NCBI GenBank assembly: GCA_045544575.1
Contig: JAZPZG010000075.1
Location: 1 to 50,973, forward strand
Direction: 5' to 3'
Length of the DNA stretch: 50,973 nt
Source of the DNA: Clostridia bacterium
GTDB lineage: Bacteria; Bacillota; Clostridia; UBA1212
The position numbers were made by a program, and so were the translations under genes. The notes below the pieces were generated by a model. That model made no database searches. It was not told the DNA's origin and was given only the letters and a program-made list of their open reading frames with translations. The stretch's first letter is position 1. Each line of letters begins with the position of its first letter. This document shows, in pieces, positions 25,318 to 42,071 of the stretch.

Positions 25318-25411
25318 TTGACAAATAGGGTTGTTTCATATAGAATACAGACGTTAATGATGTTGTAACGTTGCTGTTATTGTATAGTTTTCTTAAAAGG
25401 AATGATTTGAA

Positions 25412-27823
25412 ATGAAAAACACTATTGACTGTATTTCTCATGAACAATGTACCGGATGCGGAGCATGCTTTAACAAGTGTCCGGTTGACGCAATAAAAAT
25501 GCTTCCTGACAGAGAAGGTTTTCTTTTTCCGAATATCAATACCGAAAAATGTATAAATTGCGGGTTGTGCTTAAAGGCCTGTCCTGTAAACGATGTAAAA
25601 GCGGAAAACAATCCGGAACCGAGTTGCTATGCGGTTATTGGCGATGACGAGCTTAGAAAAAAGAGTTCGTCGGGCGGTGTTTTTTCTCTTATTGCTGATT
25701 GGATATTAGAAAGAGGCGGTGTTGTTTGCGGAGCTGCTTTTACCGATGACTGTTATTCCGTAGAGCATATCGTAATTGAAAGCCGTGACCAATTGCATAA
25801 ACTAAGAGGCTCGAAATACGTTCAAAGTGATACAAAAAATGTTTATAGAGCTGTAGCAGAACATCTGAAAAATAAGAGACCTGTTCTTTTTACAGGTACC
25901 CCTTGCCAGATAGCAGGCATAAACAGCTTTCTTGGGAAGCCCGATGAAAACTTGTACACGATAGATTTGGTATGTCACGGCGTACCGTCTCCTTTTGCAT
26001 ATGAGAAATTCATAAAAGAACAGGAAGAAAAAAACTCCTCAAAGGTTGTTCGTGTTTCTTTTAGAGATAAGGACGTTATAAAATGGAATATCTCGACTAC
26101 TCTGGAATTTGAAAACGGCGAGATTGCCAGAAAAAAACGTGACGAATGTCCATATATAAAATCCTTTTTGAAACTATTGATGTTTAGAAAAAGCTGCGGC
26201 AAATGCCAATTTGCAAGAATTCCAAGACAGGGAGATATGACGATTGCAGACTTCTGGGGAGTTCGTCACTTTGATCAAAAGTTAGACGACGGCAACGGCA
26301 CCAGTCTTGTTTTGCCTAATAATTCAAAGGGTTTTGAGATGCTGAAGGTTCTTGAAAAGTCTGCAAAAGTGGTTAAAGAAGCTCCTTTGGAAATTGCCGC
26401 AAAGTATAATGCCCAGCTCAAGCATTCTTCCTTACATCATGCAAGAAGAAATCGTTTTTATAGCTTGTTAAGTGATTATGATTACGGCTTTGAAAAGGCT
26501 GTGGACTACGGATTTAATCGCAAATTTGATATAGGCTTTATAGGTTGGTGGTATGGTTCAAATTACGGAAGCGTATTGACTAATTTTGCTTTGCATCAGG
26601 TTCTGACGGGTATGAAGAAAAGTGTTTTGATGTTGGAATGGCCCATTGTATCCGGTCCTGTGCCGGAAAAGAAACCTGACAATAAAACCCGTAGGTTTGT
26701 AAACAATTTTTACGACATGAGTCTTATGAATCGCTTGGAAGATTACGGAAAGTTTAATCATCATTGTGATACTTTTGTTGTAGGTTCGGATCAGCTTTGG
26801 AATTGGTGGAGCAACCGAAACGTGGGAACGTATCATTTCTTTTTGGATTTTGTTGACGGTAAGCATAAGAAGATTGCGTATTCAACCTCATTTGGTCATG
26901 ACAGTGCCTATTATCCGGACGATATGGTATTAAAGTTGAGTTATTTGCTTCATCGTTTTGATGCAATTTCTGTGCGCGAGACAAGTGCTGTTGAGGTATG
27001 TAAAAAACGCTTTGACGTGGATGCGATACAAACGGCAGATCCGGTTTTCCTGTGCGATATTAAAGAATACGACAAGGCTATTGAACTTTCAAAAGTTGAA
27101 ATCAAGGAACCGTATGTTTTAGCATATATACTAAATCCGACACCCGAAAAAATAGAGAGTGTAAGATATGCTGCTGAAAAAATGAAGCTACCGTACCACA
27201 TAATACTGGATGGACAAGCTAAGTTTGAGGATTTAAAGGCGGAAGCAAATGATCCGAACGTTTTAGAAAATGTTGAAATTGCTGATTGGCTCAAATATTT
27301 TAAAAATGCTTCCTACGTGATTACCGATTCATTCCATGGTTTTTGTTTCTCGATTATTTTCAGACGCAATGTTTCTGTATTCCCGAATAAGAAGCGTGGT
27401 TTAGCTCGTTTTGACACGTTGTCTGAGACAACAGGCCTTGAGAATCGTTTACATTATTCTAAGAGCGATTTTGTAAATAGCCGTCAATGGGAAGATGCGA
27501 TTGATTATGATCGTGTATATGCGAAGCTGACACCCCAGGTGGAGGAGAGCAGAAAATGGCTTATTGATGCATTGGAGGCTCCAAAGACCCCAACCAGTAC
27601 TCGCTTACTTGAATTAAAAGCTGCTGTTCAAGCACAAGAGGAAATGAAACGCTTAAAGGCAAGTAATACCAAACTTACCGAAAAAGTGACTAATCTTGAA
27701 AAGGCTAATCAAAACAAGAAATCGGTTGCGCCCCAAAATTCTGTTAAAGTGGAGAAAAAGTCGTTAATAAAGGCTTTCTTGAAAAAAGTAAAGAGAAAGA
27801 TTAAAGGCGTTTTGAACAAATAA
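25412..27823 (+). CDS. Fusion: 2x4Fe-4S + FrhB-like (F420 hydrogenase beta-type) + polysaccharide pyruvyltransferase + coiled-coil tail (paralog 1)
   Basis: CTGCGACFNKCP, CINCGLCLKACP, SSSGG, LRGSKYVQS, GTPCQIAG, DLVCHG, IADFWG; then NYGSVL, VVGSDQLW, AISVRE, DPVFL, VITDSFHG. Confidence 0.9.
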   Translation: MKNTIDCISHEQCTGCGACFNKCPVDAIKMLPDREGFLFPNINTEKCINCGLCLKACPVNDVKAENNPEPSCYAVIGDDELRKKSSSGGVFSLIADWILERGGVVCGAAFTDDCYSVEHIVIESRDQLHKLRGSKYVQSDTKNVYRAVAEHLKNKRPVLFTGTPCQIAGINSFLGKPDENLYTIDLVCHGVPSPFAYEKFIKEQEEKNSSKVVRVSFRDKDVIKWNISTTLEFENGEIARKKRDECPYIKSFLKLLMFRKSCGKCQFARIPRQGDMTIADFWGVRHFDQKLDDGNGTSLVLPNNSKGFEMLKVLEKSAKVVKEAPLEIAAKYNAQLKHSSLHHARRNRFYSLLSDYDYGFEKAVDYGFNRKFDIGFIGWWYGSNYGSVLTNFALHQVLTGMKKSVLMLEWPIVSGPVPEKKPDNKTRRFVNNFYDMSLMNRLEDYGKFNHHCDTFVVGSDQLWNWWSNRNVGTYHFFLDFVDGKHKKIAYSTSFGHDSAYYPDDMVLKLSYLLHRFDAISVRETSAVEVCKKRFDVDAIQTADPVFLCDIKEYDKAIELSKVEIKEPYVLAYILNPTPEKIESVRYAAEKMKLPYHIILDGQAKFEDLKAEANDPNVLENVEIADWLKYFKNASYVITDSFHGFCFSIIFRRNVSVFPNKKRGLARFDTLSETTGLENRLHYSKSDFVNSRQWEDAIDYDRVYAKLTPQVEESRKWLIDALEAPKTPTSTRLLELKAAVQAQEEMKRLKASNTKLTEKVTNLEKANQNKKSVAPQNSVKVEKKSLIKAFLKKVKRKIKGVLNK

Positions 27824-27844
27824 GCTGTGTGTAAAGGCGTACCT

Positions 27845-28519
27845 ATGAATAAAAAATTTTTTTTAGCTGATAAAAGCTGCAGATTGAACTTTGCTGTATA
27901 TTACCCTGATGACTACAGGGACGTACACCTTATTACCTACCTGCACGGTGCGGGAGAAAGAGGCTTTGATATATCGCATCTTTCAAGACACGGCATCCCA
28001 AAGCTTATAGAAGAAGGGCTTGAGATAAATGCGGTTGTTGTGTGCCCGCAATGTCTGCCTGATTTTGTTTGGGATAATTTGGTTGAGGATGTAAAAGCAA
28101 TTATAGATCGTGTTGCGGAGGAGTTTAATACCGACCTTAATAAAATTTGCATTACCGGCTCCAGTATGGGTGGATTCGGTACATGGATGATGGGACTTTC
28201 ATATCCTGATTTTTTTGCGGCAATTGCTCCCGTTGCGGGTGGCGGTATGGCTTGGCGCACCCCTAATTTAAGGGAGACTCCGGTGTACGCGATTCATGGT
28301 GCTGAGGACAGCGTTGTACCTCCGATATATTCAGAGCTTATGGTTAGTACTCTTAATGCTTCGGGCGGCAATGCAAAATTGCTGTGTCTTGAGGGTTTCG
28401 GTCATAACGACGGAATTGACGAGGCGTATCGCAATACGGATTTGTTGCAATGGCTTTTGAGCAACGTAAAGAGCAGCGAAAGAGTGCACGTGCCCGAATT
28501 TTTGAGCGAGCTGTTTTGA
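27845..28519 (+). CDS. Alpha/beta hydrolase (esterase/peptidase-like)
   Basis: YLHGAGERG, GSSMGG nucleophile elbow, HGAED, FGH triad. Confidence 0.85.
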   Translation: MNKKFFLADKSCRLNFAVYYPDDYRDVHLITYLHGAGERGFDISHLSRHGIPKLIEEGLEINAVVVCPQCLPDFVWDNLVEDVKAIIDRVAEEFNTDLNKICITGSSMGGFGTWMMGLSYPDFFAAIAPVAGGGMAWRTPNLRETPVYAIHGAEDSVVPPIYSELMVSTLNASGGNAKLLCLEGFGHNDGIDEAYRNTDLLQWLLSNVKSSERVHVPEFLSELF

Positions 28520-28606
28520 ACATAAGCAAAAAAGACTTGATTTTATGTCGTTTTTGTTGTCTAATAAAAGGGTATATTAGTTTCGGGAAAGGGACTGTTT
28601 AATACC

Positions 28607-29614
28607 ATGAATAAAATTTACATACCCGAGGGATACACTCCTTTGCTTGATGAATATGACACTCAAAGAGCTATATCGTATATAAAGCAGACTTTTCAGT
28701 CTGAATTTGCAAATGCGTTGAATTTAAAGCGTGTTTCGGCGCCTCTTTTCGTAACGGAGGCTTCCGGTCTTAATGATAATCTTAACGGACATGAAAAGCC
28801 TGTTTCTTTCAGCGTTCCAGCGATCGGCGCAGACGCTCAGGTTGTTCATTCTCTTGCAAAATGGAAGCGACTTGCTCTCAAAAAATATAACTTCGTTATC
28901 GGTGGCGGATTGTACACTGATATGAATGCCATAAGACGCGAGGAAGACTTGGATAATTTACATTCCATATACGTTGACCAGTGGGACTGGGAAAAGGTTA
29001 TCACCAAGGAAACGAGAACTATGGAATACTTAAAGCTTATCGTTACTTCTATTGTCAATTCTATTTGTGATACCAATGATCGTCTGCACGTAAGATTTCC
29101 TCAGCTTCGTATTGCGCTTTGCAGGGAAGTTTCTTTTGTAACTACCCAAGAGCTTGAGGACATGTACCCTGAGCTTACAGCTAAAGAACGTGAAAATGAG
29201 TACGTAAAAGCACACAAGACTGCTTTTATTATGCAGATAGGCGGAAAGCTTCGATCCGGAAAACCGCATGACGGAAGAGCCCCCGACTATGATGATTGGG
29301 AGCTTAACGGTGATATATTCTTTTGGAACGACGTACTTAAATGTGCTGTAGAGATTTCCTCGATGGGTATAAGAGTCGACGCTGAGTCTCTTGATCGCCA
29401 GCTTACGATATCGGGTTGTGACGACAGGAGAGCATTGCCGTTCCATAAGATGCTTCTTAATAACGAGCTTCCCCTTACTATCGGCGGCGGTATAGGTCAG
29501 TCGAGATTGTGTATGCTCATGATGGGCTGTGCACACATAGGTGAAGTACAGTCAAGCATTTGGGATGATGAGACAGTAAAGGCTTGTGAGGAAGCAGGAA
29601 TAAGGCTTTTGTAA
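28607..29614 (+). CDS. asnA: Aspartate-ammonia ligase
   Basis: VVHSLAKWKR, HSIYVDQWDWE, HDGRAPDYDDW, TIGGGIGQSR. Confidence 0.97.
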   Translation: MNKIYIPEGYTPLLDEYDTQRAISYIKQTFQSEFANALNLKRVSAPLFVTEASGLNDNLNGHEKPVSFSVPAIGADAQVVHSLAKWKRLALKKYNFVIGGGLYTDMNAIRREEDLDNLHSIYVDQWDWEKVITKETRTMEYLKLIVTSIVNSICDTNDRLHVRFPQLRIALCREVSFVTTQELEDMYPELTAKERENEYVKAHKTAFIMQIGGKLRSGKPHDGRAPDYDDWELNGDIFFWNDVLKCAVEISSMGIRVDAESLDRQLTISGCDDRRALPFHKMLLNNELPLTIGGGIGQSRLCMLMMGCAHIGEVQSSIWDDETVKACEEAGIRLL

Positions 29615-29662
29615 GACAAAACCTAAAAACAACCGGAATACGATAAATTACAGAAAAATGTT

Positions 29663-29700
29663 ACAGCCGACAGTTTTGAAAGTCAAAATCTGTCGGCTGT
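29663..29700. terminator. Bidirectional terminator between asnA and the DUF2975 gene
   Basis: ACAGCCGACAG...CTGTCGGCTGT stem between convergent genes. Confidence 0.8.
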
Positions 29701-29733
29701 TGATTGTTTATTAAGTTAAAATTTGATTATGTA

Positions 29734-30477
29734 TTATTCCTCGGTAACGGTGATTTCTTCAGTATCTTCTGCACTTTCAACAACGCCTTCTGCATCAGCG
29801 CAGCAAGTGCAACCTTCAAGTGATGCACCGTACTTAAGTACGAAAGTTAACGTAAACAAAGCGATTACGAGAACTACCATCGTCATATTTACGGAAACTG
29901 AGAAAGATGAACTGCCTTCTCCGAAAGCAAGACCGGCGATAGCGCCGATGAGAGACGGTGCAACTGCACACGGAATAAGCGTGATTGCAAGAGTACGAAC
30001 CTTAGAGATGATAGAACTCTCAAAGGGTGAATTGCAATTCTTAAGTGACTTGCAGATGGAGGATACCATAAATGTGCAGATGAGAAGAACAACAACTTCT
30101 GCAATTGCGGCAACAAGTCCTGTCTTAACGTATTTCATAAGCGAAAGTCCGCCGTAGACTTCAAAGTCCATAGTGAGTTTTCCTGCTTGTGACATGAAGT
30201 TTTTGTAGGTGAATTCAACCCCGTCTGCAGAGAATTTCAAATCGCTGAAGTCGTCTTCCGTAAGCTCCGGAGGATAAACGCCAAGCTCTGCAAAGTCTAT
30301 AGACATTTGCATCTCGTTCGTCGTGTTGATTTCAATCAAGTCGGGCATAGCAATAAAGATAACCGTTGCCGCAACAAGAACAGCTAAACTGATAAAAAGT
30401 AAAATCTTCGCAATTAAGGCAATAATCCAACCGGCTTTGCTAAAGCTTTTGATGGTGTTAAGTGTTTTTTCGTTCAT
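29734..30477 (-). CDS. DUF2975-like membrane protein
   Basis: Several TM helices, SICKSLKNCNSPFES and FVLKYGASL patterns; GAGGTG RBS before ATG 30477. Confidence 0.65.
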   Translation of the reverse strand: MNEKTLNTIKSFSKAGWIIALIAKILLFISLAVLVAATVIFIAMPDLIEINTTNEMQMSIDFAELGVYPPELTEDDFSDLKFSADGVEFTYKNFMSQAGKLTMDFEVYGGLSLMKYVKTGLVAAIAEVVVLLICTFMVSSICKSLKNCNSPFESSIISKVRTLAITLIPCAVAPSLIGAIAGLAFGEGSSSFSVSVNMTMVVLVIALFTLTFVLKYGASLEGCTCCADAEGVVESAEDTEEITVTEE

Positions 30478-30632
30478 GTATTGCACCTCGCTAAATATTA
30501 GTTGGTAATATACTATAATATATTTCCTTTTTTGTCAAATCAAACCTTGCAGAGAAAGTGTATTTTACTTTTTGTCTGGTTTGTTTTACATTAAACTAAT
30601 TGTAGCGTGTATACAATATAATTTAAAGTTCA

Positions 30633-30661
30633 TTGACTTTGCAACTAGTATGTTTTATAAT
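30633..30661 (+). promoter_or_regulatory. Promoter TTGACT-N17-TATAAT for the CitC-like fusion gene
   Basis: Hexamers at 30633-30638 and 30656-30661; GGAG RBS before ATG 30736. Confidence 0.7.
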
Positions 30662-30735
30662 ATCGCATATATTTCTACATTGAATGTAGACTTGTAAATA
30701 ATAAATTATATATTTATTGCTATAGGAGATTTTAT

Positions 30736-32646
30736 ATGAGCGATTCATTAATCAGTAGTAATGACCAATATACCAAAGAAACCTTACTTGCGGATTTTGC
30801 CAAATTTGGCGGATATGGTATTCCATTTCCACTGATTTTAAGTGAAGTTTACAAGAATAAGAGAATATTTTTGTTTTCAACTGAAGAAATATGTAATGAC
30901 TTTTATACGTTGTTCGGTAGCTTTTCTTTTTACAAGCAAGCCAATATTACATTTTGTTCTGACAAACCTTTTGTTTACAATAAAAATCATTTATGGTTAC
31001 AATTTGTAAACATTGAGAATATAGCTTTCAAAAGCTCTGATTTTGTTCTCTTGTTTGATCTTGATGTCAAGGCTGCTACTGTTGAGAAAATTAAGGCTAA
31101 AGGCGTTTCTAACGTTTGTTTGATTAAAAAAAGCGTTTTAAACGCTCTGTTCCATTATGCAACTGCAATACGACCGGTAAAACAATTATTGCAAAAATAC
31201 CCAAAGCTTCAGGTGATTTTGACAGACAATCGAGTTCCGCCTTCTCCGGAAAAACGTACCGATTGGGAACGATACATTGCAGAAAATTCCCTTACGCGAG
31301 AAAAGATGGTTGCGAAGTTAAAAGCCGAAGAGTATCCTTATCCTAAAGGTTTGTATAATGAAAGCTACTCAGCAGCTGATATCGTAGAAATGAACACAGT
31401 TCCTAAAAGAGTCTGTGATTACCGAGGCGTTGTATCATTATCTGACTTTGAAAGTAAATACATTAACGTCAGCAACGGAATGAGAAATACAGCTTACCAA
31501 CCTCAAGAATATGATAGAACAATACATATTTTTGGTGGATGCGGTTGGTTTGGTGTGGGTCATGCAGATCACGAAACGTTTCCTTCACAACTTCAACTTT
31601 TGCTAAACAAGAATGTTCCCGAAGAGAAAATTATTGTGAGAAATCGTGCTAGCTTTATTTGGGGAAAACATGATATTATGTGGTATAGCATAAACAGCAC
31701 GGATTTTTCGGAAAATGATATTGTAGTAATTCCCGGAAATTACAAATGGGCAAGATTTTATTATTCAGACATTCCAAACATGCATTACGTTGATATCTCC
31801 GAAAGAGAAGATAGCGATGGTGAAGTTTTTGTTGATGCTTGGCATCCCAGTGAAAGTGGTCTGAAGTCATATGCAAGGAATTTGTTTGATTTTCTGAAGG
31901 AAAATAATTTTTTACGGGGACAACCTACCATTGATGCGAAATTCGTAGAAACAAAGCAAATAAAAGAATATGGTGTTCCTGCTTTTTCAAAAATCTCTTC
32001 GTCTATGCTTTCAAACGAACACATGAAAGCACTTGATGAATATTTGCAGGACATAAAAAAACTAAGACCTCGTATCGGATCTATCGTTATGAATTGTAAT
32101 CCATTTACGTTAGGTCATAGATATCTCATTGAATATGCATCAAAACAAGTAGAGCATCTTTATGTTTTTGCGGTTGAAGAAGATAAGTCGTTCTTTCCGT
32201 TTAAAGATAGAATTGAGCTTATACGAAAAGGCACAGCAGATCTTGAAAATGTTACTGTATTGCCGAGTGGAAAATTTATTATTTCTTCAATTACTTTTAC
32301 AGACTATTTTGGTAAGCAAGAGCTTCAGGACAAAACTATTGATCCCAGTTTGGATGTTTCATTGTTTGGAAAACATATTGCTCCTGCTCTTGGTATTAAT
32401 GTTAGATTTGCAGGTGAGGAACCCCTTGATAAGGTTACATTGCAATATAATCGCACTATGGAAAAAATTCTGCCACAGTATGGCATTGAATTCGTAGTGG
32501 TACAAAGAAAAGTGGAATCGGGGGCTGTTATCAGTGCAAGTAGAGTCAGAAAGCTTCTCAATGAACAAAATTTTGCCGAAATAAAAAGAATTGTTCCAAT
32601 TACTACGTATGAATATTTGTTGAAGAATTATAAGATAGACAAATAG
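30736..32646 (+). CDS. 636-aa fusion: unknown N-terminus + Cys-type SGNH-like domain + CitC-like nucleotidyltransferase (adenylating) domain
   Basis: IFGGC (C269) and DAWHP (D367/H370) in SGNH-like spacing; C-terminal GSIVMNCNPFTLGH...FAVEED...RFAGEEP...ISASRVR is the citrate-lyase-ligase C-terminal domain; CitC N-terminal GNAT part absent. Confidence 0.8.
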   Translation: MSDSLISSNDQYTKETLLADFAKFGGYGIPFPLILSEVYKNKRIFLFSTEEICNDFYTLFGSFSFYKQANITFCSDKPFVYNKNHLWLQFVNIENIAFKSSDFVLLFDLDVKAATVEKIKAKGVSNVCLIKKSVLNALFHYATAIRPVKQLLQKYPKLQVILTDNRVPPSPEKRTDWERYIAENSLTREKMVAKLKAEEYPYPKGLYNESYSAADIVEMNTVPKRVCDYRGVVSLSDFESKYINVSNGMRNTAYQPQEYDRTIHIFGGCGWFGVGHADHETFPSQLQLLLNKNVPEEKIIVRNRASFIWGKHDIMWYSINSTDFSENDIVVIPGNYKWARFYYSDIPNMHYVDISEREDSDGEVFVDAWHPSESGLKSYARNLFDFLKENNFLRGQPTIDAKFVETKQIKEYGVPAFSKISSSMLSNEHMKALDEYLQDIKKLRPRIGSIVMNCNPFTLGHRYLIEYASKQVEHLYVFAVEEDKSFFPFKDRIELIRKGTADLENVTVLPSGKFIISSITFTDYFGKQELQDKTIDPSLDVSLFGKHIAPALGINVRFAGEEPLDKVTLQYNRTMEKILPQYGIEFVVVQRKVESGAVISASRVRKLLNEQNFAEIKRIVPITTYEYLLKNYKIDK

Positions 32647-32739
32647 AGAATCCTGGAAGTCAATCTGAATATGTTGCAGTGCAAATAATTGTGTGGTAAA
32701 CTTCTCGGATTTATAAAAAATTTGCTTGTTATCTATGGC

Positions 32740-32840
32740 TGAGTGACAGTTGCTGCTGCTCAGCCAGTTCACTTTCAAGCATTCCCTGTAGGGGATTGTC
32801 TAACAAGATTTGAATGCTTTCAACTCTTTGGAAGTAGCTG
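32740..32840 (-). mobile_element. Possible IS256-like transposase scar
   Basis: Minus-strand frame reads ...ESIQILLDNPLQGMLESELAEQ, loosely like IS256 N-termini (DIQ..L...IQ.MLEAE..E); no start and no terminal repeats found. Confidence 0.2.
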
Positions 32841-33038
32841 CTTGCGGTATTACTTTTCCGCTGAGAGCGCAGGGGTGGGCGAAGTCTTTGGTCATATCGA
32901 CAATGCGATTATTGGTACAGTTTGATTTGCAAAAGAGAAAAAGAGTCAATGAGCATTTGTTGACAAATGTGGTAGTTTATTGTAGCGTAGTAATGGTTTC
33001 TGTTGGTATATTAGTGCAGTAATGGAAGGGGTTTTGAA

Positions 33039-34409
33039 TTGGAAGCCGAGATGGGGTTGCAGAAAAAAGAAACGACACATATTTCAATCATGGGTTCCTG
33101 TGTTCCAAGAGATACCTTTGAAATTTGTAAAAATGCCGACGGGTATTTTGCTGGGTTGGAAAATTCGTATACTGTAGATCGATTTATACAAAGTATAAGT
33201 CCTGTTTCAGCGATTTTTGATCCTATAGATGAGACTACATCAAAGCAGCTGATATGTGAAGCTGAAGCATCAGGTGCTGCTAATTTTGATAAAAGAAATT
33301 TTATGCTTGATGTGACCAAAACATGGCGTAATTATCTATCTGAAGTTAAGTCGGATTGGTTAATTATTGATCTTTCAACAGCACGACTTCGGTTGTTTGA
33401 ATTTGAAAATAGTATTATAACAGAAGGGTCGTTGGTAAGAATACTAGATAAGCATAAGGCACTTTCAGAGGATTCACTTTTATCTAAGCTGAAGTTGTTT
33501 AATACAATAGACGTAGCAGAGTGTGATCAAGAATATTTGATAAACGCTTATTCTAGATATTTTGATGAGCTTCTTGCAATTTATCCACAGGAAAAAATAA
33601 TTGTTTTAGGCATAGAACATAATTTTTCTTTTGTTGATGAGGTTCTGTCGAAAGTTGAATTGCTGAGCTATTCCATTAAATATCAACAACAGATCGAGAA
33701 TAATATAATAAATTTTGCTTACTCGTATGCGAAAGAATATATGCCAAGGGCGCATTTTATTGACCCTTTGCCTGTAAGTATATGCGATAGGAGACATAAA
33801 TGGGGGATGATGGGGCTCCATTATATGCCGGATACTTATTTGTACTTTTTTCGTTGTATTGATTATATTACGCATTCTAATGATGATAGGTCTTTTGAAA
33901 AAGAGCATATTATGCAACTGCAAATTGATTTTTCGAAGAAAATGTTTTTAAAGTATTCTGTTATTGCTAACAAAAATTTGGAGGAAGAGAGAAATAAGTT
34001 ATCTTTAAAACATGGTGTTTCTCCCGGTGTATACGTGAAAAATGGAATAACGCTTACGATATCAGATGATTTTTCTTATACGGTGTCAGGTGAAGCTACT
34101 AATGATGTCGTTTTTTATCTAATTTCCTCACATAAAAATCCACTTGGGGGCTGGGCATCAAGAAAAGAGGATACTGAGCCCGGTGTTTATAAGTTCGTGA
34201 CGGGGACAAGAAAAATAGAAGATAAATTTTTTATACAATTATTATTAACGGATAGTATAAACGCGGATAAAAGATGGATAACTGGGGATTTTAAATCTGT
34301 CAAATTTAGAATTCATAACTTATATGATTATAGGTTAGTTAGACTTGTAGTAAGAGCCGGTGTCTCTGTGAACGAAAGAGGTAAGCTTTTTCTTGAGAAA
34401 ATTGAATAG
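33039..34409 (+). CDS. DUF6270-like protein (GSC-motif SGNH/WcbI-like fold) with extra C-terminal domain
   Basis: ISIMGSCVPRD N-terminus, DWLIIDL, WG...LHY..Y.YF pattern recalled from DUF6270; TTG start after GGAAGGGG. Confidence 0.6.
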   Translation: MEAEMGLQKKETTHISIMGSCVPRDTFEICKNADGYFAGLENSYTVDRFIQSISPVSAIFDPIDETTSKQLICEAEASGAANFDKRNFMLDVTKTWRNYLSEVKSDWLIIDLSTARLRLFEFENSIITEGSLVRILDKHKALSEDSLLSKLKLFNTIDVAECDQEYLINAYSRYFDELLAIYPQEKIIVLGIEHNFSFVDEVLSKVELLSYSIKYQQQIENNIINFAYSYAKEYMPRAHFIDPLPVSICDRRHKWGMMGLHYMPDTYLYFFRCIDYITHSNDDRSFEKEHIMQLQIDFSKKMFLKYSVIANKNLEEERNKLSLKHGVSPGVYVKNGITLTISDDFSYTVSGEATNDVVFYLISSHKNPLGGWASRKEDTEPGVYKFVTGTRKIEDKFFIQLLLTDSINADKRWITGDFKSVKFRIHNLYDYRLVRLVVRAGVSVNERGKLFLEKIE

Positions 34410-34493
34410 AAATGTTGAGTAATTATTTTGTCGTTTCATAAGTTGCAGGGGTGTGCAATATAGAGATTGATAAAAACATTATTTGCTGAGCTA

Positions 34494-34522
34494 TGGACTT
34501 TTTGCGTATTGTGTAGTATAAT
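34494..34522 (+). promoter_or_regulatory. glf operon promoter TGGACT-N17-TATAAT
   Basis: Hexamers at 34494-34499 and 34517-34522. Confidence 0.55.
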
Positions 34523-34567
34523 GAAAATGTCTTATTATATCAAGGTATGACAGAAAGGATAAGTGCT

Positions 34568-35659
34568 ATGTACGATTATTTGATTGTCGGCGCAGGTCTC
34601 TACGGAGCGGTTTTTGCACACGAACTTACAAAACGTGGAAAAAGTTGTCTGGTTATTGATAAAAGAGATCATATTGCGGGTAATATTTATACCGAAAATG
34701 TCTCGGGAATAAATGTACACAAGTACGGTGCTCACATATTCCACACCTCGGATAAAGAAGTTTGGGATTATGTTAATCAGTTTGCGGAATTTAACAACTA
34801 TATTAACAGTCCGATTGCTGTATATAAGGACGAGCTTTATAATTTACCTTTTAACATGAACACATTTTCTAAAATGTGGGGCGTGAGGACTCCTGCTGAG
34901 GCTAAGGAGAAAATTGCGCAGCAGGTTGCGGAGCTTGATATAAAGGAACCTCAAAATCTTGAAGAACAGGCACTGAGTCTTGTGGGTACGGATGTATATA
35001 CGAAGCTTGTTAAGGGCTATACTGAAAAACAGTGGGGCCGTGACTGTAAGGAGCTTCCCGCTTTTATCATAAAGCGCCTTCCTTGCCGTTTTATATATGA
35101 TAATAACTACTTCAACGACCGCTACCAAGGTATTCCTATCGGCGGATACACTGCCATGGTAGAAAAAATGCTGGAAGGCATTGAAGTTAGACTTAATACG
35201 GATTATTTTGAACTTATAAAGGAACAGCCCGATATTGCGAAAACTACGGTTTACACAGGCTGTATAGATGAGTTTTTCGGTTATCAATTGGGCGCACTTC
35301 AGTATCGCAGTGTTCACTTTGAAACAGAAGAACTTGATATGGATGATTATCAGGGCAATGCCGTGGTAAACTATACAGAGCGCGAGGTTCCGTATACCAG
35401 AATTATTGAGCATAAGCATTTTGAATTCGGTAAGCAGCCCACTACGGTTATCAGCCGTGAATATTCCGCGGAATGGAAGCCCGGAATGGAGCCGTATTAC
35501 CCTGTAAACGATGCAGAAAACGGTGCTCTTTACGAAAAGTATAAAAAACTTGCCGAAGAAAAAGGAAACGTTATTTTCGGCGGACGCCTCGGTCAATACC
35601 GCTATTACGATATGGACAAGGTAATACGTGCAGCATTAGATGATCTTAAGACTATTTAA
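34568..35659 (+). CDS. glf: UDP-galactopyranose mutase
   Basis: IVGAGLYG, HKYGAHIFHT, YTEKQWG, YQGIP, EPYYP, GRLGQYRYYDMD. Confidence 0.97.
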   Translation: MYDYLIVGAGLYGAVFAHELTKRGKSCLVIDKRDHIAGNIYTENVSGINVHKYGAHIFHTSDKEVWDYVNQFAEFNNYINSPIAVYKDELYNLPFNMNTFSKMWGVRTPAEAKEKIAQQVAELDIKEPQNLEEQALSLVGTDVYTKLVKGYTEKQWGRDCKELPAFIIKRLPCRFIYDNNYFNDRYQGIPIGGYTAMVEKMLEGIEVRLNTDYFELIKEQPDIAKTTVYTGCIDEFFGYQLGALQYRSVHFETEELDMDDYQGNAVVNYTEREVPYTRIIEHKHFEFGKQPTTVISREYSAEWKPGMEPYYPVNDAENGALYEKYKKLAEEKGNVIFGGRLGQYRYYDMDKVIRAALDDLKTI

Positions 35660-35686
35660 TAACTATATTCAGAGAGGGGAACAGTG

Positions 35687-36862
35687 ATGAATTCACCGAA
35701 GGTTTCAGTTGTAGTTCCTTGCTACAACGTGGAAAAGTATTTGAGACAGTGTCTGGACAGCATTGTAAATCAAACTCTTAAGGAGTTGGAAATTATTTGC
35801 GTAAACGATGGCTCGAAGGACTCCACTTTATCAATAATTGAAGAATATGCAGCAAAGGATTCGCGCTTTAAAATAATAGACAAGCCCAACGCCGGTTACG
35901 GTGACAGTATGAACCGCGGCTTTGACATGGCTACCGGTGAGTATATCGGAATTATTGAGTCTGACGACTATGCAGAGCTTGATATGTTTGAAAAGCTCTA
36001 CAATACTGCGAAAAAGCATGAGCTCGATGTTGTTAAGAGCGGTTTCTTCTTCTATTGGTCGAAGAAGGGTGAAAAAAACATTCCAAACCCGATTGCATCA
36101 AAGACTACCAGCAGCCGTACCTTCTGCCCCGTAAATGCATTTAAGTCCAAGATGGAAATGGTGGACTTTTTCAATATAAAGCCTACCATATGGTCAGCTA
36201 TTTACCGTAAGGATTTTATAAGACAGAACAATATCAGATTTAACGAAACCCCCGGTGCATCATATCAGGATGCCAGCTTTAACTTTAAGGTGTGGACCTG
36301 TGCAAAGAGAGTACGTCTTTTAAAGGAGTGCTTCCTCCATTACAGACAGGATAACGAATCATCTTCCATAAATTCCCCCGGAAAGGTTTACTGCATCTGT
36401 GATGAATACGACGAGATGGAGCGTTTCCTCAATACACGTCCCTTAGAGAAGGGAATATTGGAGCCTGTTATGGTACGTATTAAATACGACAGCTATAACT
36501 GGAACTACGAAAGACTTTCCGAACCTCTTCAGGCTGAATTCATATTGCGTTTCAGCAAGGATTTTGAAAAGCACCTTACCGACGGCTCACTTCAAAAAGA
36601 ATATTTTGAGTGGTATAAGTGGACAAGCGTTCATCAGGTAATAGACGATCCCGAAGAATATCACAAGGCGCGTGTGCTTGCAAAAAAGGGTGAGCTTACA
36701 TCTTCTTCTAAAAAGAGTGAGGCCCAAGGAAATGACGGCAAGCCTGACGAGAAACGTTCTCTCGGAAACAGAATTGACGGCGGTATCAATTGCATCCGTG
36801 ACCATGGTTTTTTCTATACCGTGAGACTCGGATTTGCAAAGATATTTAGGAGGGGTAAGTAA
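35687..36862 (+). CDS. GT2 family glycosyltransferase
   Basis: VSVVVPCYNVEKYL, VNDGSKD, IIESDDY, PGASYQD. Confidence 0.92.
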   Translation: MNSPKVSVVVPCYNVEKYLRQCLDSIVNQTLKELEIICVNDGSKDSTLSIIEEYAAKDSRFKIIDKPNAGYGDSMNRGFDMATGEYIGIIESDDYAELDMFEKLYNTAKKHELDVVKSGFFFYWSKKGEKNIPNPIASKTTSSRTFCPVNAFKSKMEMVDFFNIKPTIWSAIYRKDFIRQNNIRFNETPGASYQDASFNFKVWTCAKRVRLLKECFLHYRQDNESSSINSPGKVYCICDEYDEMERFLNTRPLEKGILEPVMVRIKYDSYNWNYERLSEPLQAEFILRFSKDFEKHLTDGSLQKEYFEWYKWTSVHQVIDDPEEYHKARVLAKKGELTSSSKKSEAQGNDGKPDEKRSLGNRIDGGINCIRDHGFFYTVRLGFAKIFRRGK

Positions 36863-37827
36863 TGAACGGATGTCCGGTAAAGGTTTCAGTAATAGTTCCT
36901 GTTTATAATGTCGAAGAGTATTTAAGCACTTGCCTTAACAGCTGTATAAATCAAACTCTTTACGATATTGAAATAATTTGCGTAAATGACGGTAGTACAG
37001 ATGGATCTGCCGCTATCTTGGAGCGATTTGCTCAGGTGGATAACAGAATTACCGTTATCCACAAGAAAAACGGTGGTCTTTCTTCTGCCAGAAACGCAGG
37101 TATGAGAGTCGCAAACGGAAAGTTTGTTATGTTTCTTGATTCTGACGACTATCTTTCCCCGAATGCCTGTGAGCGAGTTTGGTGTGAAAGCCTTGAAGGC
37201 GATACCGATATTGTGATTTTCGGAACCAATATTTTCCCTACAAAGCCTTATGCAAGTGATTGGCACCGCAGAGTTTTAGAGGTTTGGACTCATAGATACT
37301 ACAGTTTTACTCCTCACGTTCTTTTCGGCGAGCCCAGCGCAAAACCTTTCGTTTGGAGACAAGCTTTTTCAAAGAAGCTCCTTGACAAGTCCAAACTTGA
37401 GTTTGACGAGAGCGTAAAGTACGGCGAGGATACTGTATTTCAGCTTGAAATGTTCCCCCATGCCGAGAATTTTGCGTTTATTGAGGACCGATTGTATAAC
37501 TACCGTTGGTACAGGCAAGGCTCGCTAATGTCTACTCTTCGTGATGATATCGACAAGAGAGTCAGTGAGCACATCAGAATGTGTACCAATATTACGGAAT
37601 ACTGGAAGAAACAGGGTTGGCTTAAAGAATACGGCAGAGAGTTTACGGAGTGGACTCTTGAATTTATTGTTCCGGATATTAAGTCAAAGGGTGTAAAGAA
37701 AGCTAACGAGCATTTCAAGGCGTATGGAAATATGCTTGATACCTATAATCTCAGACAGTATATTAAGCACGTTTCTCCGTATTTCCAAAACTACGTGCTG
37801 ATGCTTCCTAATAGCTTTTATAATTGA
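36862..37827 (+). CDS. GT2 family glycosyltransferase
   Basis: VSVIVPVYNVEEYL, NGGLSSARN, FLDSDD, YGED. Confidence 0.92.
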   Translation: MNGCPVKVSVIVPVYNVEEYLSTCLNSCINQTLYDIEIICVNDGSTDGSAAILERFAQVDNRITVIHKKNGGLSSARNAGMRVANGKFVMFLDSDDYLSPNACERVWCESLEGDTDIVIFGTNIFPTKPYASDWHRRVLEVWTHRYYSFTPHVLFGEPSAKPFVWRQAFSKKLLDKSKLEFDESVKYGEDTVFQLEMFPHAENFAFIEDRLYNYRWYRQGSLMSTLRDDIDKRVSEHIRMCTNITEYWKKQGWLKEYGREFTEWTLEFIVPDIKSKGVKKANEHFKAYGNMLDTYNLRQYIKHVSPYFQNYVLMLPNSFYN

Positions 37828-37851
37828 TTAAATTAATTAAAGGATGATTTT

Positions 37852-40284
37852 ATGGAAAATACTATAAAAAAAGTACCGCATGACCGGTGTACCGGTTGCG
37901 GAGCGTGTTACAACAAATGCCCTGCAGATGCGATTCGTATGAATTATGATAATGAGGGCTTTCTTTATCCTGAAGTAACGGACGCTTGTATTAATTGCGG
38001 ACTTTGCACGACTGCTTGCCCGGCCCTTAATCCTCCGTATTTTTATGAAAAGCCTATGTCATATGCCGTCTGGGCTTCGGATGAAACGCGTCTTAAAAGT
38101 TCTTCCGGAGGAATGTTCACGATTCTTGCCGAATACGTTATAAAAAACGGAGGTGCAGTGTGCGGTGCTGCCTATGCAGAGGATTTCCAAACCGTTCACC
38201 ATATTTGGGCAGAAAACTTAGAGGAACTTGCTCTGCTTCGCGGCTCTAAATACGTACAAAGTGACACAGAGCAGACTTATAAGAAGGCTAAGGAGCTTCT
38301 TAAGGATGGGCGTATGGTGCTGTACACCGGTTGTCCTTGCCAGATAGCAGGCCTTTATAAATTCTTGGGAAATGACCATGAAAATCTGATTACAGCTGAC
38401 TTGGTTTGTCATGGTGCAAATTCGGTTACGGCTTATCAATCTTTCATTAAAGAATTTTCTGAAGATCAGGAAATTGAGAAGGTTGATTTTCGTGATAAAA
38501 AGTATTACCCTTGGTCAACGCCCACAGTAGTTTATCTCAAGAACGGAACTGTTAAAAAAGCCGGTTGGAACGAAAGCACTTGGAATACCGGATTTTTGGA
38601 AGGTGTCATCAACAGGAAAAACTGCCACGATTGTCCGTATGCAAGAGAAGAACGTATCGCTGATATAACGTTGGCTGACTGCTGGCAGGTTCACCGCATA
38701 AATCCGAAATTTGATGATAGAAAAGGAACGTCCCTTGTTTTAGTAAATTCTGCTAAGGGAAGGGCTTTGTTTAAAGAACTTAAACCTGCAATGAAGCTTT
38801 GTGAGCCTGTTCCGCTTGAAGAAATGAAAAAGTATAACGGTCAGCTGCGAGGTCCGGCCAAGATGCATCCTTCGAGAAAATTTTTCTTTTCACATCTGGA
38901 TAAGCTCGGTTACCACAAGGCTTTATGGTACGGACGAGGTATGCGTTTTGATATAGGTATTGTGGGATGGTGGTTTGCATCTAATTACGGCAGTTCTCTT
39001 ACCTACTACGCACTGGGCAAGATACTTGAAAACATGGGAAAGCAGATTTTGCTTGTGCCTATTGCAAAGGTCGATAATACGCCTTGGGAGCCTGAAACAC
39101 AAATTACTATAGATTTTCTTTCTAAATATTTTCATGTGGGGAAAGATCGTTCTTTTGACAAAATGAGCGAGTTTAACCGCTTCTGTGATTCATTTATGCT
39201 TGGATCTGACCAAATGTGGACGGGTGACAATACCAATTTGGTGGGTTATACTTTCTTTCTTGATTTTGTTGACAAAGATAAGAAAAAAATTGCTTTTTCC
39301 ACGTCTTTCGGTCACAGTGATTTCTATGCACCTGAGGATGTTTGTGCCACTGCAGGAGACTACTTAAGCAGGTTTGATGCTATAAGTGTTCGTGAGAAAA
39401 GCGGCGTTGACGTATGCAGAAATCGTTTTGGTCTTGAGGCTGAGCAAATTATAGATCCTGTATTCCTTTGCGAAACAGAGGAGTATGATCATCTTGCTGA
39501 TTCCACTGATGAGGCAAAGGAAAGAAAGTATTTGCTTTGCTATATTCTTGATCCGACACCGGAAAAAGAGGCTGCGGCAAAAGCTATTGCGGAGCATGAA
39601 GGCTTGGAGATTTTGACGGTTCTTGATTTAAAGACACATGACACTGCAAAAAACGACTGGCACACGGGCACGGTATTGCCTCAGATTAGTGCTGATAAGT
39701 TTCTCCATTATATAAAGAATTGTTCGTATTTGCTTACAGATTCACACCATGGTGCTTGCTTCGGTATTATTTACGAGAGACCGTATGCTGCAATGGTTAA
39801 TGCCAATCGTGGAATAACACGCTTTGAAACTGTGGCAGATGCCTTTGGTCTTCATGATCGTCTTTACACTGACCCCATGGAGATTTGTACGTCTGACAGA
39901 CCATATGCTCCCATTGATTATGGACGTGTCGGAGAGTGCATTGCAAGAGAAAAAGAAAGGGCATTTAAGTGGTTGGAAAATGCTCTCAACTGTCCTGTTA
40001 AGGCGGCTCGTGATACACTTCGTACTATTTCTGTAGATGGTTCGCGTAAAATTATGGGAGTTGAGGGTCAAATAGCTGCACTTGAGAAAAGAGTTTCTGA
40101 AAGTGAGACCGCAAATGCGAAAGAGTTGGCTGAGCTTTGCAGCTGTGTAAAAAAGCTTTCAGCGGATATTGAACAATTGATAGCACTTCAAAAACAATCT
40201 TCTGAAACAGAGCATAAGCCTGTTGAACCGGAGCCGATTGAGAAAACTTCGCTTTGGGACAAAGTCAAAAAGAAAATGAAGTAG
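37852..40284 (+). CDS. Fusion: 2x4Fe-4S + FrhB-like + polysaccharide pyruvyltransferase + coiled-coil tail (paralog 2)
   Basis: CTGCGACYNKCP, CINCGLCTTACP, LRGSKYVQS, GCPCQIAG, LADCW; NYGSSL, LGSDQMW, AISVRE, LLTDSHHG. Confidence 0.9.
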   Translation: MENTIKKVPHDRCTGCGACYNKCPADAIRMNYDNEGFLYPEVTDACINCGLCTTACPALNPPYFYEKPMSYAVWASDETRLKSSSGGMFTILAEYVIKNGGAVCGAAYAEDFQTVHHIWAENLEELALLRGSKYVQSDTEQTYKKAKELLKDGRMVLYTGCPCQIAGLYKFLGNDHENLITADLVCHGANSVTAYQSFIKEFSEDQEIEKVDFRDKKYYPWSTPTVVYLKNGTVKKAGWNESTWNTGFLEGVINRKNCHDCPYAREERIADITLADCWQVHRINPKFDDRKGTSLVLVNSAKGRALFKELKPAMKLCEPVPLEEMKKYNGQLRGPAKMHPSRKFFFSHLDKLGYHKALWYGRGMRFDIGIVGWWFASNYGSSLTYYALGKILENMGKQILLVPIAKVDNTPWEPETQITIDFLSKYFHVGKDRSFDKMSEFNRFCDSFMLGSDQMWTGDNTNLVGYTFFLDFVDKDKKKIAFSTSFGHSDFYAPEDVCATAGDYLSRFDAISVREKSGVDVCRNRFGLEAEQIIDPVFLCETEEYDHLADSTDEAKERKYLLCYILDPTPEKEAAAKAIAEHEGLEILTVLDLKTHDTAKNDWHTGTVLPQISADKFLHYIKNCSYLLTDSHHGACFGIIYERPYAAMVNANRGITRFETVADAFGLHDRLYTDPMEICTSDRPYAPIDYGRVGECIAREKERAFKWLENALNCPVKAARDTLRTISVDGSRKIMGVEGQIAALEKRVSESETANAKELAELCSCVKKLSADIEQLIALQKQSSETEHKPVEPEPIEKTSLWDKVKKKMK

Positions 40285-42063: not shown

Positions 42064-42071
42064 AATATCTC

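Follow-up and report, generated by a model that had tools for sequence, protein, structure and literature searches.

What does an enzyme make that joins a ferredoxin-like domain, an FrhB-like redox domain and a polysaccharide pyruvyltransferase (PT) domain in a single chain? Two such proteins are encoded in the window, that is, the whole 50,973-nucleotide contig JAZPZG010000075.1 analysed here, which belongs to a Clostridia metagenome-assembled genome (GCA_045544575.1; 62% complete). Lactic-acid ethers of sugars have been known since the 1970s from O antigens, capsules and rumen-bacterial slimes, and MurA and MurB provide a chemical precedent for their formation: enolpyruvyl transfer, then flavin-dependent reduction. 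We know of no characterised enzyme that makes a lactyl ether outside muramic acid, and a full-text literature search found no biosynthesis paper for lactyl ethers other than muramic acid.

An earlier note on this DNA had proposed that the fused proteins carry out the same two steps—enolpyruvyl transfer and reduction—on a surface glycan. Comparative evidence now supports that proposal: the linkage of the two activities across genomes, the separate clade formed by the transferases and the gene content of the Escherichia coli O69 and O150 and Klebsiella K66, K22 and K37 clusters.

Architecture of the fused proteins

The description of two proteins of about 800 residues, each a fusion of ferredoxin, FrhB-like and pyruvyltransferase domains, was borne out by open reading frames, Pfam matches and AlphaFold2/Foldseek comparison, as follows.

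25412-27823, + strand: copy 1, fused enzyme of 803 aa (open reading frame and translation)
~25433-25591, + strand: copy 1, ferredoxin-like 2x[4Fe-4S] domain
~25628-26371, + strand: copy 1, FrhB_N + FrhB_C (Pfam)
~26561-27388, + strand: copy 1, PS_pyruv_trans (Pfam)
~27569-27820, + strand: copy 1, C-terminal tail, helical and basic
37852-40284, + strand: copy 2, fused enzyme of 810 aa (open reading frame and translation)
~37879-38025, + strand: copy 2, ferredoxin-like domain
~38062-38796, + strand: copy 2, FrhB_N + FrhB_C (Pfam)
~38983-39786, + strand: copy 2, PS_pyruv_trans (Pfam)
C-terminus of copy 2, + strand: long helix (residues 723-785), then a short basic helix

The N-terminus of each copy carries two canonical CxxCxxCxxxCP motifs; among 43 homologues, the putative ligands of these two ferredoxin-type clusters are kept, C13, C16, C19 and C23 being at least 90% conserved and C46, C49, C52 and C56 invariant. 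Both halves of the FrhB-like domain score over the Pfam cut-off (FrhB_FdhB_N, PF04422: 4e-11 for copy 1 and 1e-7 for copy 2; FrhB_FdhB_C, PF04432: 9e-22 and 1e-21), and the family motifs SSSGG, GSKY and PCQ, conserved in the same 43 homologues, align with 8rja_E and Fsr. Four further invariant cysteines (C163, C186, C258 and C261) are putative ligands of a cluster belonging to the FrhB-like domain itself. Matches to PS_pyruv_trans (PF04230) have E-values of 7e-29 and 2e-29 for copies 1 and 2 (bit scores 102 and 104; cut-off 25.3) and span profile positions 1-278 and 1-273 of 280. Pfam found no EPSP-synthase-fold and no MurB/FAD_binding_4 domain in either copy.

The AlphaFold2 model of copy 2 (pLDDT 91.3, pTM 0.85) agrees with this division. 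Foldseek matched its N-terminal half to FrhB, Fsr, FdhB and HCAR (8rja_E, 8riu_B, 7npa, 6qii_B, 7bkb_E and 5dqr; best E 3.5e-14) and its C-terminal half to GT-B folds, including the yeast pyruvyltransferase Pvg1p (5ax7_A; E 1e-5).

Proposed reaction

We consider it likely that each copy is a single-chain lactyl-ether (1-carboxyethyl) synthase working at the cytoplasmic side on a lipid-linked, galactofuranose-containing wall polysaccharide. In the first step, the C-terminal PS_pyruv_trans-type domain would put the C3 unit of PEP on one sugar hydroxyl, giving an enolpyruvyl (carboxyvinyl) ether that would not close onto a second hydroxyl as a ketal. In the second, the N-terminal module would reduce the C=C bond to yield an O-(1-carboxyethyl) ether, with electrons passing from a low-potential donor, for example ferredoxin, through two [4Fe-4S] clusters and a third cluster to FAD in the FrhB-like domain; fusion would hold the labile enol ether beside its reductase. 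The acceptor would be the growing lipid-linked polymer, to be exported by an ABC transporter.

The proposed chemistry is that of MurA and MurB, in which an enolpyruvyl group from PEP is placed on a sugar hydroxyl and reduced by a flavin to a D-lactyl ether. The window proteins differ in showing no homology to that pair and in the proposed use of a ferredoxin-type Fe-S chain where MurB takes NADPH; MurA and MurB, moreover, have UDP-GlcNAc as their only substrate.

Genomic context and the likely acceptor

Copy 2 is housed in a surface-glycan gene cluster, and copy 1 is an orphan, as is a third, unfused pair of PT and FrhB-like genes elsewhere in this genome (contig C5), which the earlier note did not mention. 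The features around the two fusions are these.

25318-25346, + strand: the region's best promoter-like site, TTGACA-17-TAGAAT, lying 66 bases ahead of copy 1 (consensus match only)
27827-28519, + strand: alpha/beta-hydrolase (esterase/peptidase S9-like) gene, 3 bases past the copy 1 stop
30633-30661: promoter-like site ahead of the operon (11/12 matches; consensus match only)
30736-32646, + strand: operon gene 1, 636 aa, with a C-terminal citrate-lyase-ligase-type nucleotidyltransferase domain
33039-34409, + strand: operon gene 2, DUF6270 protein
34547-35659, + strand: Glf, UDP-galactopyranose mutase (Pfam GLF, 8e-87)
35684-36862, + strand: GT2 glycosyltransferase, upstream of copy 2
36862-37827, + strand: GT2 glycosyltransferase, directly upstream of copy 2
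40432-46093, - strand: divergent half of the glycan locus
40432-41205, - strand: ABC ATPase
41236-42063, - strand: ABC-2 permease
42072-44667, - strand: three GT2 genes
44651-46093, - strand: initiating sugar-phosphate transferase (Bac_transf)

One copy had been placed 12 kb outside the main operon. It does lie outside, but not at that distance: copy 1 ends 2.9 kb before the first gene of the operon (30736), and 12.4 kb is the interval by which its start precedes that of copy 2. On one side it is flanked by DUF421/DUF4363 genes and on the other by the esterase gene and asnA. The alpha/beta-hydrolase gene is probably co-transcribed with copy 1, and it is not conserved beside copy-1 orthologues. 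Promoter-like sites are no more numerous in the region than in shuffled sequences.

Within the operon, Glf would supply galactofuranose for the glycan. A syntenic GT2-GT2-fusion-Glf locus with an ABC transporter occurs in Pseudobutyrivibrio sp. 49, with identities of 50% between the fusion and copy 2, 67% for Glf, 41% and 40% for the GT2 pair, which keeps its order, and 51% and 35% for the ABC pair; the order GT2(395)-GT2(320)-fusion is also found in L145. Stack et al. reportedly described 4-O-(1-carboxyethyl)-galactose in 1988 in the extracellular polysaccharide (EPS) of Butyrivibrio fibrisolvens 49, which we take to be the same strain. With its LCP ligase and ABC transporter, the strain 49 locus resembles one for a wall polymer, and the lactyl sugars are those of the EPS, so the link between fusion and lactyl group there may be indirect.

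The same two steps could instead be performed on a soluble nucleotide sugar, in strict parallel with MurA/MurB, leaving a glycosyltransferase to insert the UDP-(lactyl)hexose. We regard this as unlikely. In its favour, a review of E. coli O antigens ties wfeP to 'synthesis of UDP-D-GlcpLA', that is, to the UDP-sugar level, an orphan position among housekeeping genes (copy 1 and its orthologue P0152) would suit a precursor enzyme, and the window proteins have no membrane span. Copy 1, however, has no dedicated extra glycosyltransferase, and the long helix and basic tail of both copies could, judging from the model, hold the proteins at the membrane. The characterised PF04230 enzymes CsaB, WcaK and Pvg1p, moreover, act on lipid-linked or completed glycans. 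A lipid-linked acceptor is the preferred reading.

Lactyl ether or pyruvate ketal

Across 76 Clostridia genomes with 102 FrhB_C matches, a PS_pyruv_trans gene lay within 1.5 kb of 57 matches and within 5 kb of 82, against about 1% expected by chance; for 16 of the 102 the contig carried no transferase gene, and several of these matches lay at contig ends. Fusions occurred in eight other genomes, seven with PT followed by FrhB and one with FrhB followed by PT, and this occurrence of both domain orders indicates that fusion arose more than once.

A tree of 54 transferase domains, including 20 unlinked Clostridia enzymes and E. coli WcaK, was split by one branch (SH-aLRT 100%) into two clades. 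The ketal side comprises the 20 unlinked, CsaB-like enzymes and WcaK; the reductase-linked side, to which both window copies belong, holds 23 of 24 FrhB-linked enzymes, all eight fusions and the transferases of E. coli O69 and O150, the fusions forming a sister group (support 97) to the enterobacterial O69/O150/IAI1/Citrobacter enzymes. In the linked clade, eight residues that never vary in the ketal clade are replaced, namely D16, G125-G126, D131, R242, D292, R335 (of RLH) and Y354 (WcaK numbering), with SDQxW and S-(F/H)-H standing there instead. Copy 2 thus reads N-Y-G-S, G-S-D-Q-x-W and S-H-H at the N-x-G-D, G-G-G and R-L-H sites of the ketal group, and the motif replacements are held by 47-100% of the linked clade. 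With WcaK, CsaB and Pvg1p the window proteins nonetheless share the Pfam family, a GT-B-like fold and the N-x-G, R-(E/D), D-P and H motifs. The pattern points to a remodelled active site in the linked transferases.

Enterobacterial gene clusters connect this clade to glycan structures. Scanning with WcaK brought up an O-antigen cluster of Citrobacter, which in turn gave access to the E. coli IAI1-type, O69 and O150 clusters; the E. coli serogroups compared for gene content and structure are O69 and O150. The O69 and O150 clusters are near-syntenic, with homologous transferases and swapped reductases: O69 pairs its PT with an FrhB-like protein and O150 with a nitroreductase, with 45% of the O150 PT gene matching at 70% DNA identity. 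Both O antigens carry lactyl-GlcNAc and are listed as lactyl-substituted, not pyruvylated, and pyruvate ketals are listed among E. coli O antigens only for O112ac, O149 and O156 (PMC7685785). In Klebsiella capsule (cps) tables, the K66 locus has an 'F420 hydrogenase' gene with a pyruvyltransferase and the K22/K37 loci a nitroreductase with a pyruvyl transferase; the K22/K37 capsule contains 4-O-[(S)-1-carboxyethyl]-GlcA. The earlier note had asked for such loci to be correlated with known lactyl-containing glycans; each comparison made here agreed with its two-step proposal, all of the support being correlative.

The likeness to the O69 pair extends to the sequences, with a same-clade PF04230 transferase (26% identity, E 2e-33) and an FrhB-like protein (21% identity, E 6e-8) in a glycan gene cluster. 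In the O69-type system, however, the two are separate genes, the FrhB-like protein has no complete ferredoxin domain with two clusters and the pathway is of the Wzx/Wzy type in a Gram-negative host, whereas in the window a single chain carries an extra 2x[4Fe-4S] domain as well as a helical tail, the locus is of the ABC-transporter wall-glycan type and the host is an anaerobe. The nitroreductase pairs (O150; K22/K37) share the inferred logic of transferase plus flavoreductase giving a lactyl ether, and the O150 PT is sister to that of O69 in the same clade; their reductase is unrelated, FMN-type and without Fe-S clusters, and their known products are (S).

If the transferase domain instead made an ordinary pyruvate ketal, the Fe-S/flavin module would need some other role, redox sensing or structural. 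To our knowledge, all characterised PF04230 members make ketals; the window domains are well over that family's cut-off and keep N378, G380, R514, D535, H633 and R657 in common with the ketal clade. We still find a ketal improbable. A long, fully supported branch separates these domains from the WcaK/CsaB-like enzymes, whose eight invariant residues they lack; O69 and O150 have such a transferase yet are not listed as pyruvylated; and a regulatory role would leave unexplained why a nitroreductase stands in the same place in O150 and K22/K37. Ketal pyruvyltransferases have no reductase partner, and none was found next to wcaK. Set against E. coli O antigens whose structures are known, the window proteins would appear to place lactyl ethers, not pyruvate ketals, on a cell-wall sugar polymer. 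In its redox-sensing form, the ketal explanation would couple glycan decoration to the reducing state of the cell.

Each of the three modules of this genome combines a transferase with a flavoreductase, fused in both copies and adjacent in the third pair, and no ketal-type enzyme was found.

The reductase half and its electron donor

FrhB_N and FrhB_C, the fold and the signature motifs place the N-terminal half with FrhB, FdhB, FpoF, the N-terminal half of Fsr, HCAR and BciB. Unlike FrhB and FdhB, the window proteins are fused to a transferase and stand outside any hydrogenase or dehydrogenase complex, in an organism without an FO synthase match. The statement that no hydrogenase subunits are present proved correct for the window: about 47 open reading frames were scanned and no hydrogenase or dehydrogenase partner subunit was among them, and a hydrogenase role was set aside on that ground. 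F420 is an unlikely redox partner because a search of this genome and 20 relatives gave no FO synthase (CofH) score above the cut-off; its exclusion is not airtight, a CofE-like gene being present, but F420 dependence was set aside.

BciB, an FrhB-family enzyme, reduces a vinyl group with ferredoxin, and the FrhB-like half of the window proteins probably works in the manner of this ferredoxin-dependent vinyl reductase and not like an F420 enzyme. It is very improbable that this half has a role unconnected with an enolpyruvyl group, such as reducing a keto-sugar intermediate or making ready or regenerating a non-PEP donor, so that the decoration is neither ketal nor lactyl ether: FrhB-family substrates are indeed diverse (F420; sulfite, via Fsr; chlorophyll side groups, via HCAR) and some Clostridia FrhB-like genes have no transferase nearby, but the pairing is tight and one-to-one, fusions occur in both domain orders, and a nitroreductase fills the same position for antigens that have a lactyl ether as their sole unusual group.

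Configuration of the lactyl group

More tentatively, and with the odds somewhat against it, the reductase type may set the configuration, FrhB-type enzymes giving (R) and nitroreductase-type enzymes (S), in a modular stereodivergent system built on one PF04230 subfamily. That subfamily would install the enolpyruvyl ether and the partner reductase would decide its configuration; the window fusions would be (R)-lactyl-ether synthases driven by ferredoxin, in which the enol ether is channelled from one domain to the other, and the wall polymer of this small-genome anaerobe would bear several distinct lactyl groups. The swapped reductases and homologous transferases of O69 and O150, together with reports of both (R)- and (S)-lactyl-GlcNAc, support this idea.

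Precedent and significance

The two-step idea is not new; the novel part is the fused variant of a genetically known module. Genetic studies of E. coli and Shigella from 2006-2008 are reported to have ascribed glucolactilic acid to a pair of genes, and the pair that includes wfeP, from O124, S. dysenteriae 3 and S. boydii 17, is reportedly covered by Senchenkova et al. (2006), Liu et al. (2008) and Knirel et al. (2017). For the E. coli lactyl-ether pairs, function rests on genetics only. A fused chain would be convenient for a first in-vitro reconstitution, since one soluble polypeptide holds both proposed activities.

If the lactyl-ether reading is right, a new annotation would be due for thousands of genes that now bear the names 'F420 hydrogenase beta subunit', '4Fe-4S dicluster protein' or 'pyruvyl transferase', and enol-ether reduction would be a new reaction for the FrhB flavoprotein family. 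Lactyl ethers would become predictable from genomes, with a bearing on serotyping, phage and antibody recognition and the surface charge of gut bacteria.

Relatives and paralogues

The two copies share only 42% identity (771 residues aligned) and both have relatives elsewhere that are closer to them than they are to each other, so a recent duplication was rejected; vertical inheritance was rejected too, the fusion being present in none of the 40 nearest genomes. Copy 1 has its own orthologue group (60-66% identity), some members of which lie in glycan operons of the ABC type and others, as orphans, in housekeeping surroundings; homologues of copy 2 are 66-72% identical. Different targets for the paralogues are plausible because each copy has an orthologue group of its own, and the two fusions and the third pair would most likely decorate different positions or polymers.

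That copy 1 is not in the glycan operon counts against the lactyl-ether reading. Homologues number in the thousands, and the module is widespread.

Domain architecture and fold of the fused proteins

Both fused genes proposed in an earlier note are present on the forward strand, and Pfam matches, cysteine motifs and the predicted fold of copy 2 bear out the suggested make-up of ferredoxin, FrhB-like and polysaccharide pyruvyltransferase (PS_pyruv_trans) domains:

25412–27823, + strand: copy 1, 803 aa, ferredoxin-type, FrhB-like and PS_pyruv_trans fusion
37852–40284, + strand: copy 2, 810 aa, ferredoxin-type, FrhB-like and PS_pyruv_trans fusion

Each copy carries two canonical CxxCxxCxxxCP motifs at its N-terminus, Pfam matches to FrhB_FdhB_N (4e-11 in copy 1, 1e-7 in copy 2), FrhB_FdhB_C (9e-22 and 1e-21) and full-length PS_pyruv_trans (7e-29 and 2e-29), and a helical, basic C-terminal tail; the two are 42% identical across 771 residues. 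Alignment of 43 homologues showed retention of the eight ferredoxin cysteines, of four more cysteines in the FrhB-like domain (C163, C186, C258 and C261 in copy 2 numbering) and of the family motifs SSSGG, GSKY and PCQ. The AlphaFold2 model of copy 2 was confident (pLDDT 91.3, pTM 0.85). In structure comparisons, its N-terminal half resembled FrhB-family structures—8rja_E and 8riu_B (F420-reducing Fmd and CODH subunits), Fsr, FrhB, FdhB and plant HCAR—and its C-terminal half resembled GT-B enzymes, among them the yeast pyruvyltransferase Pvg1p. No hydrogenase subunit was found among the ORFs of the window, as the note had also claimed.

Gene surroundings and source genome

The window is contig C75 of a 1.35-Mb metagenome-assembled genome (MAG) that is 62% complete. 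A gene for a spore germination protease identifies it as a Firmicute, and the nearest named relatives of its proteins belong to MAGs of Ruminococcaceae and Oscillospiraceae. Copy 2 is the last gene of an operon spanning 30736–40284:

within 30736–34409: operon gene 1, 636-aa protein with a citrate-lyase-ligase-type nucleotidyltransferase domain
within 30736–34409: operon gene 2, DUF6270 protein
after the DUF6270 gene: Glf
after Glf and before copy 2: two GT2 glycosyltransferases
strand opposite to the operon: ABC-2 transporter pair, three GT2 genes and an initiating phosphotransferase

This is an ABC-transporter-dependent locus for a galactofuranose-containing glycan, to which the products of operon genes 1 and 2 may add a further substituent. 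In the 636-aa protein, the nucleotidyltransferase domain forms the last 190 residues and the first 440 match nothing.

Copy 1 does lie outside this operon, but not at the 12 kb previously given: it ends only 2.9 kb upstream of the operon start. It is flanked by DUF421/DUF4363 genes on one side and, on the other, by an esterase gene whose start is 3 bases past the copy 1 stop codon; just upstream of copy 1 is the region's best promoter-like sequence, which is a consensus match only. Elsewhere in the window are two adjoining uracil-DNA-glycosylase-superfamily genes with a 34-base overlap (5703–6919) and a gene for a secreted-type ribonuclease (PF00545) with a 100-residue N-terminal extension (10204–10815).

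Two further loci in the same genome (G000) bear on the partners and cofactor of the fusions:

contig C5, locus L007:10258–12546: unfused pair, pyruvyl transferase (370 aa) then FrhB-like protein (387 aa)
contig C56:3390–4532: CofE-like gene (PF01996), ~400 aa, 195 bits

In the unfused pair, the ferredoxin motifs of the FrhB-like protein are C-terminal; M50 and M23 peptidase genes flank the pair, with FnlA-like and UDP-GlcNAc 2-epimerase genes adjoining. Counting this pair and the two fusions, all three PS_pyruv_trans genes recovered from the genome have an FrhB-like partner. F420 is an unlikely cofactor of the fusions, since a search of this genome and 20 relatives gave no FO synthase above the cut-off; the CofE-like gene, of the F420-0:glutamyl ligase family, is kept in 18 of these 21 genomes.

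FrhB–pyruvyl transferase linkage across Clostridia

Profile searches of 300 Clostridia-class species genomes gave an FrhB_C match in 83 and a PS_pyruv_trans match in 213. A PS_pyruv_trans match lay within 1.5 kb of 57 of the 102 FrhB_C matches over cut-off and within 5 kb of 82, against a chance expectation of about 1%, calculated from roughly two transferase genes per 2.5-Mb genome; 16 of the 102 had none on the contig, several of these 16 being at contig ends. Roughly half of the transferase genes across the searched genomes lacked an FrhB neighbour. Fusions occurred in eight other genomes, seven with the transferase first and one with FrhB first, as in the window, and since both orders occur, fusion arose more than once. 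The fusion was absent from all 40 nearest genomes, one of the same genus included; the fusion genes are accessory, mobile decoration genes. Many Clostridia also encode a high-scoring CsaB-like pyruvyl-transferase domain within a frame of ~735–790 aa that contains no FrhB domain (for example, G094:C28:17595–18440 and G149:C1:740138–740998, by genome and contig).

Phylogeny of the transferase domains

A tree was built from 54 transferase domains: 20 unlinked and 20 FrhB-linked Clostridia enzymes, eight fusions, the third transferase of the window genome, four enterobacterial enzymes and E. coli WcaK, the colanic-acid ketal pyruvyltransferase. They separated into two sides across a long branch of 100% SH-aLRT support: all 20 unlinked enzymes grouped with WcaK, and the E. 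coli O69 and O150 enzymes fell with every fusion and 23 of the 24 FrhB-linked enzymes. The clade of fusions with both window copies was sister to the enterobacterial group (support 97); the third transferase fell within the linked group, in a different sub-clade. Common to both sides are N-x-G, R-(E/D), D-P, a histidine and a basic residue. By contrast, eight positions invariant on the ketal side (in WcaK numbering, D16, G125–G126, D131, R242, D292, R335 of the R-L-H motif, and Y354) carry other residues on the linked side, whose motifs there are SDQxW and S-(F/H)-H.

Lactyl-bearing antigens of enterobacteria

Lactyl groups are recorded in E. coli O antigens O58, O124, O146, O69 and O150, and pyruvate ketals only in O112ac, O149 and O156 (PMC7685785). 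Titles cited in that review indicate 4-O-[(S)-1-carboxyethyl]-GlcNAc in O150 and, for the GlcNAc lactyl ether of O69, suggest the (R) form (Knirel et al., 2017). In a Klebsiella cps survey, K66 has a unique ‘coenzyme F420 hydrogenase’ gene with a pyruvyltransferase gene, and K22/K37 a unique ‘nitroreductase’ with a pyruvyl transferase (PMC4616057, supplement); K22 contains 4-O-[(S)-1-carboxyethyl]-D-glucuronic acid, according to a title cited in PMC3857182.

A WcaK scan yielded 80 enterobacterial genomes, of which 50 were searched. In one of them, Citrobacter sp. ANG330, an O-antigen cluster adjoins gnd (wzx, FrhB-like, pyruvyl transferase, wzy, GT2, galE, GT4); a DNA search with this cluster picked up syntenic counterparts in E. 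coli IAI1 and in seven further E. coli genomes. This compact galF–gnd cluster, with an EpsG-type wzy, occurs in eight of 5,426 complete E. coli genomes besides the Citrobacter (locus L098):

L099:10736–18797: galF–gnd cluster of E. coli IAI1

Its product is predicted to be a lactyl-bearing three-sugar unit. PGAP assigned the IAI1-type cluster no O-serogroup label, and IAI1 has O8/O9-type mannan genes past gnd.

A weaker DNA match led to E. coli 2013C-3252, whose wzx and wzy PGAP labels ‘O69 family’ and whose cluster runs rmlBDAC, FrhB-like, wzx, pyruvyl transferase, glycosyltransferases, wzy. Its transferase gene matched E. coli O150:H6 FEX669 (70% DNA identity over 45% of the gene), where, in an O69-like layout, a nitroreductase-family gene replaces the FrhB-like one: a natural reductase swap, the reductase families differing and the transferases being homologous. 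A correlation with lactyl structures, of the kind that the earlier note had put forward as a check for FrhB-type loci, is seen in O69 and O150, which have lactyl ethers without reported ketal and which each encode a linked-clade transferase and a flavoreductase. Copy 2 aligned with the O69 transferase over its whole length (26% identity, E 2e-33) and with the O69 FrhB-like protein at 21% identity (E 6e-8). As a negative control, wcaK had no reductase neighbour in K-12 or IAI1. The swap hints that the reductase sets the lactyl configuration.

The IS-rich 24.8-kb E. coli plasmid pBDSF8-3_3 carries fragments of both module types (nitroreductase fragment, pyruvyl transferase and GT2; flippase, FrhB-like and pyruvyl transferase), so decoration modules evidently move on mobile DNA.

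Proposed mechanism and alternatives

Architecture, conserved ligands, fold, linkage, clade separation and correlation with lactyl-bearing antigens support a reading in which the fusions probably carry out enolpyruvyl transfer followed by reduction to a 1-carboxyethyl ether; its cofactors, donor, acceptor, product and stereochemistry we infer. The C-terminal domain would transfer enolpyruvyl from PEP to a single hydroxyl, making an ether on a sugar of a lipid-linked polymer in the cytoplasm or, possibly, on a nucleotide sugar. A low-potential donor would then supply electrons, relayed by three [4Fe-4S] clusters to the FAD of the FrhB-like domain, and this domain would reduce the double bond. 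MurA/MurB provide a precedent for the two-step chemistry, and BciB, an FrhB-family ferredoxin-dependent vinyl reductase, for the reduction. The resemblance to MurA/MurB would lie in chemistry alone, whereas the proteins are non-homologous, the Pfam domain search having revealed no homology of the fusions to either.

The same two steps on a nucleotide sugar seem unlikely. Slightly less likely still is conventional ketal pyruvylation in which the redox domain is an accessory: the window transferase half does belong to the Pfam family of the ketal enzymes, but the tree split and motif replacement place it outside the ketal-forming group. Another reductive role for the reductase half is improbable; a change of reductase while the transferase stays, as between O69 and O150, is what transfer followed by reduction predicts.

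Genetic work in E. coli and Shigella in 2006–2008 reportedly tied the gene pair to glucolactilic acid, and we know of no member of the transferase–reductase module that has been assayed. Database homologues of the fused form number in the thousands. The window contributes the fused ferredoxin-domain variant (two old paralogues in a small anaerobe genome that also encodes the unfused pair), the clean phylogenetic and motif split from ketal enzymes, and the O69/O150 reductase swap. The fusion variant makes the old question of lactyl-ether synthesis directly testable.

A cultured relative and the history of the paralogues

Pseudobutyrivibrio sp. 49, which we take to be Butyrivibrio fibrisolvens strain 49, has an annotated fusion 50% identical to copy 2, in a locus with an LCP ligase, glycosyltransferases, an ABC transporter and the order GT2-GT2-fusion-Glf. 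The window shares this ordered module (GT2, 41%; GT2, 40%; fusion, 50%; Glf, 67%), and the transporter too. Stack et al. are said to have described 4-O-(1-carboxyethyl)-D-galactose from the extracellular polysaccharide of B. fibrisolvens 49 (Biochem J, 1988); the link between fusion and sugar may be indirect, as the locus looks like one for a wall polymer.

The duplication is old, because copies 1 and 2 each have their own set of relatives at 60–72% identity, and the paralogues likely act on different target positions or different polymers. Copy 1 orthologues occur both in an operon (PGT, five GT2 genes, fusion, ABC permease, ABC ATPase) and as orphans amid cell-division and housekeeping genes, so orphan placement is normal for the copy 1 group.
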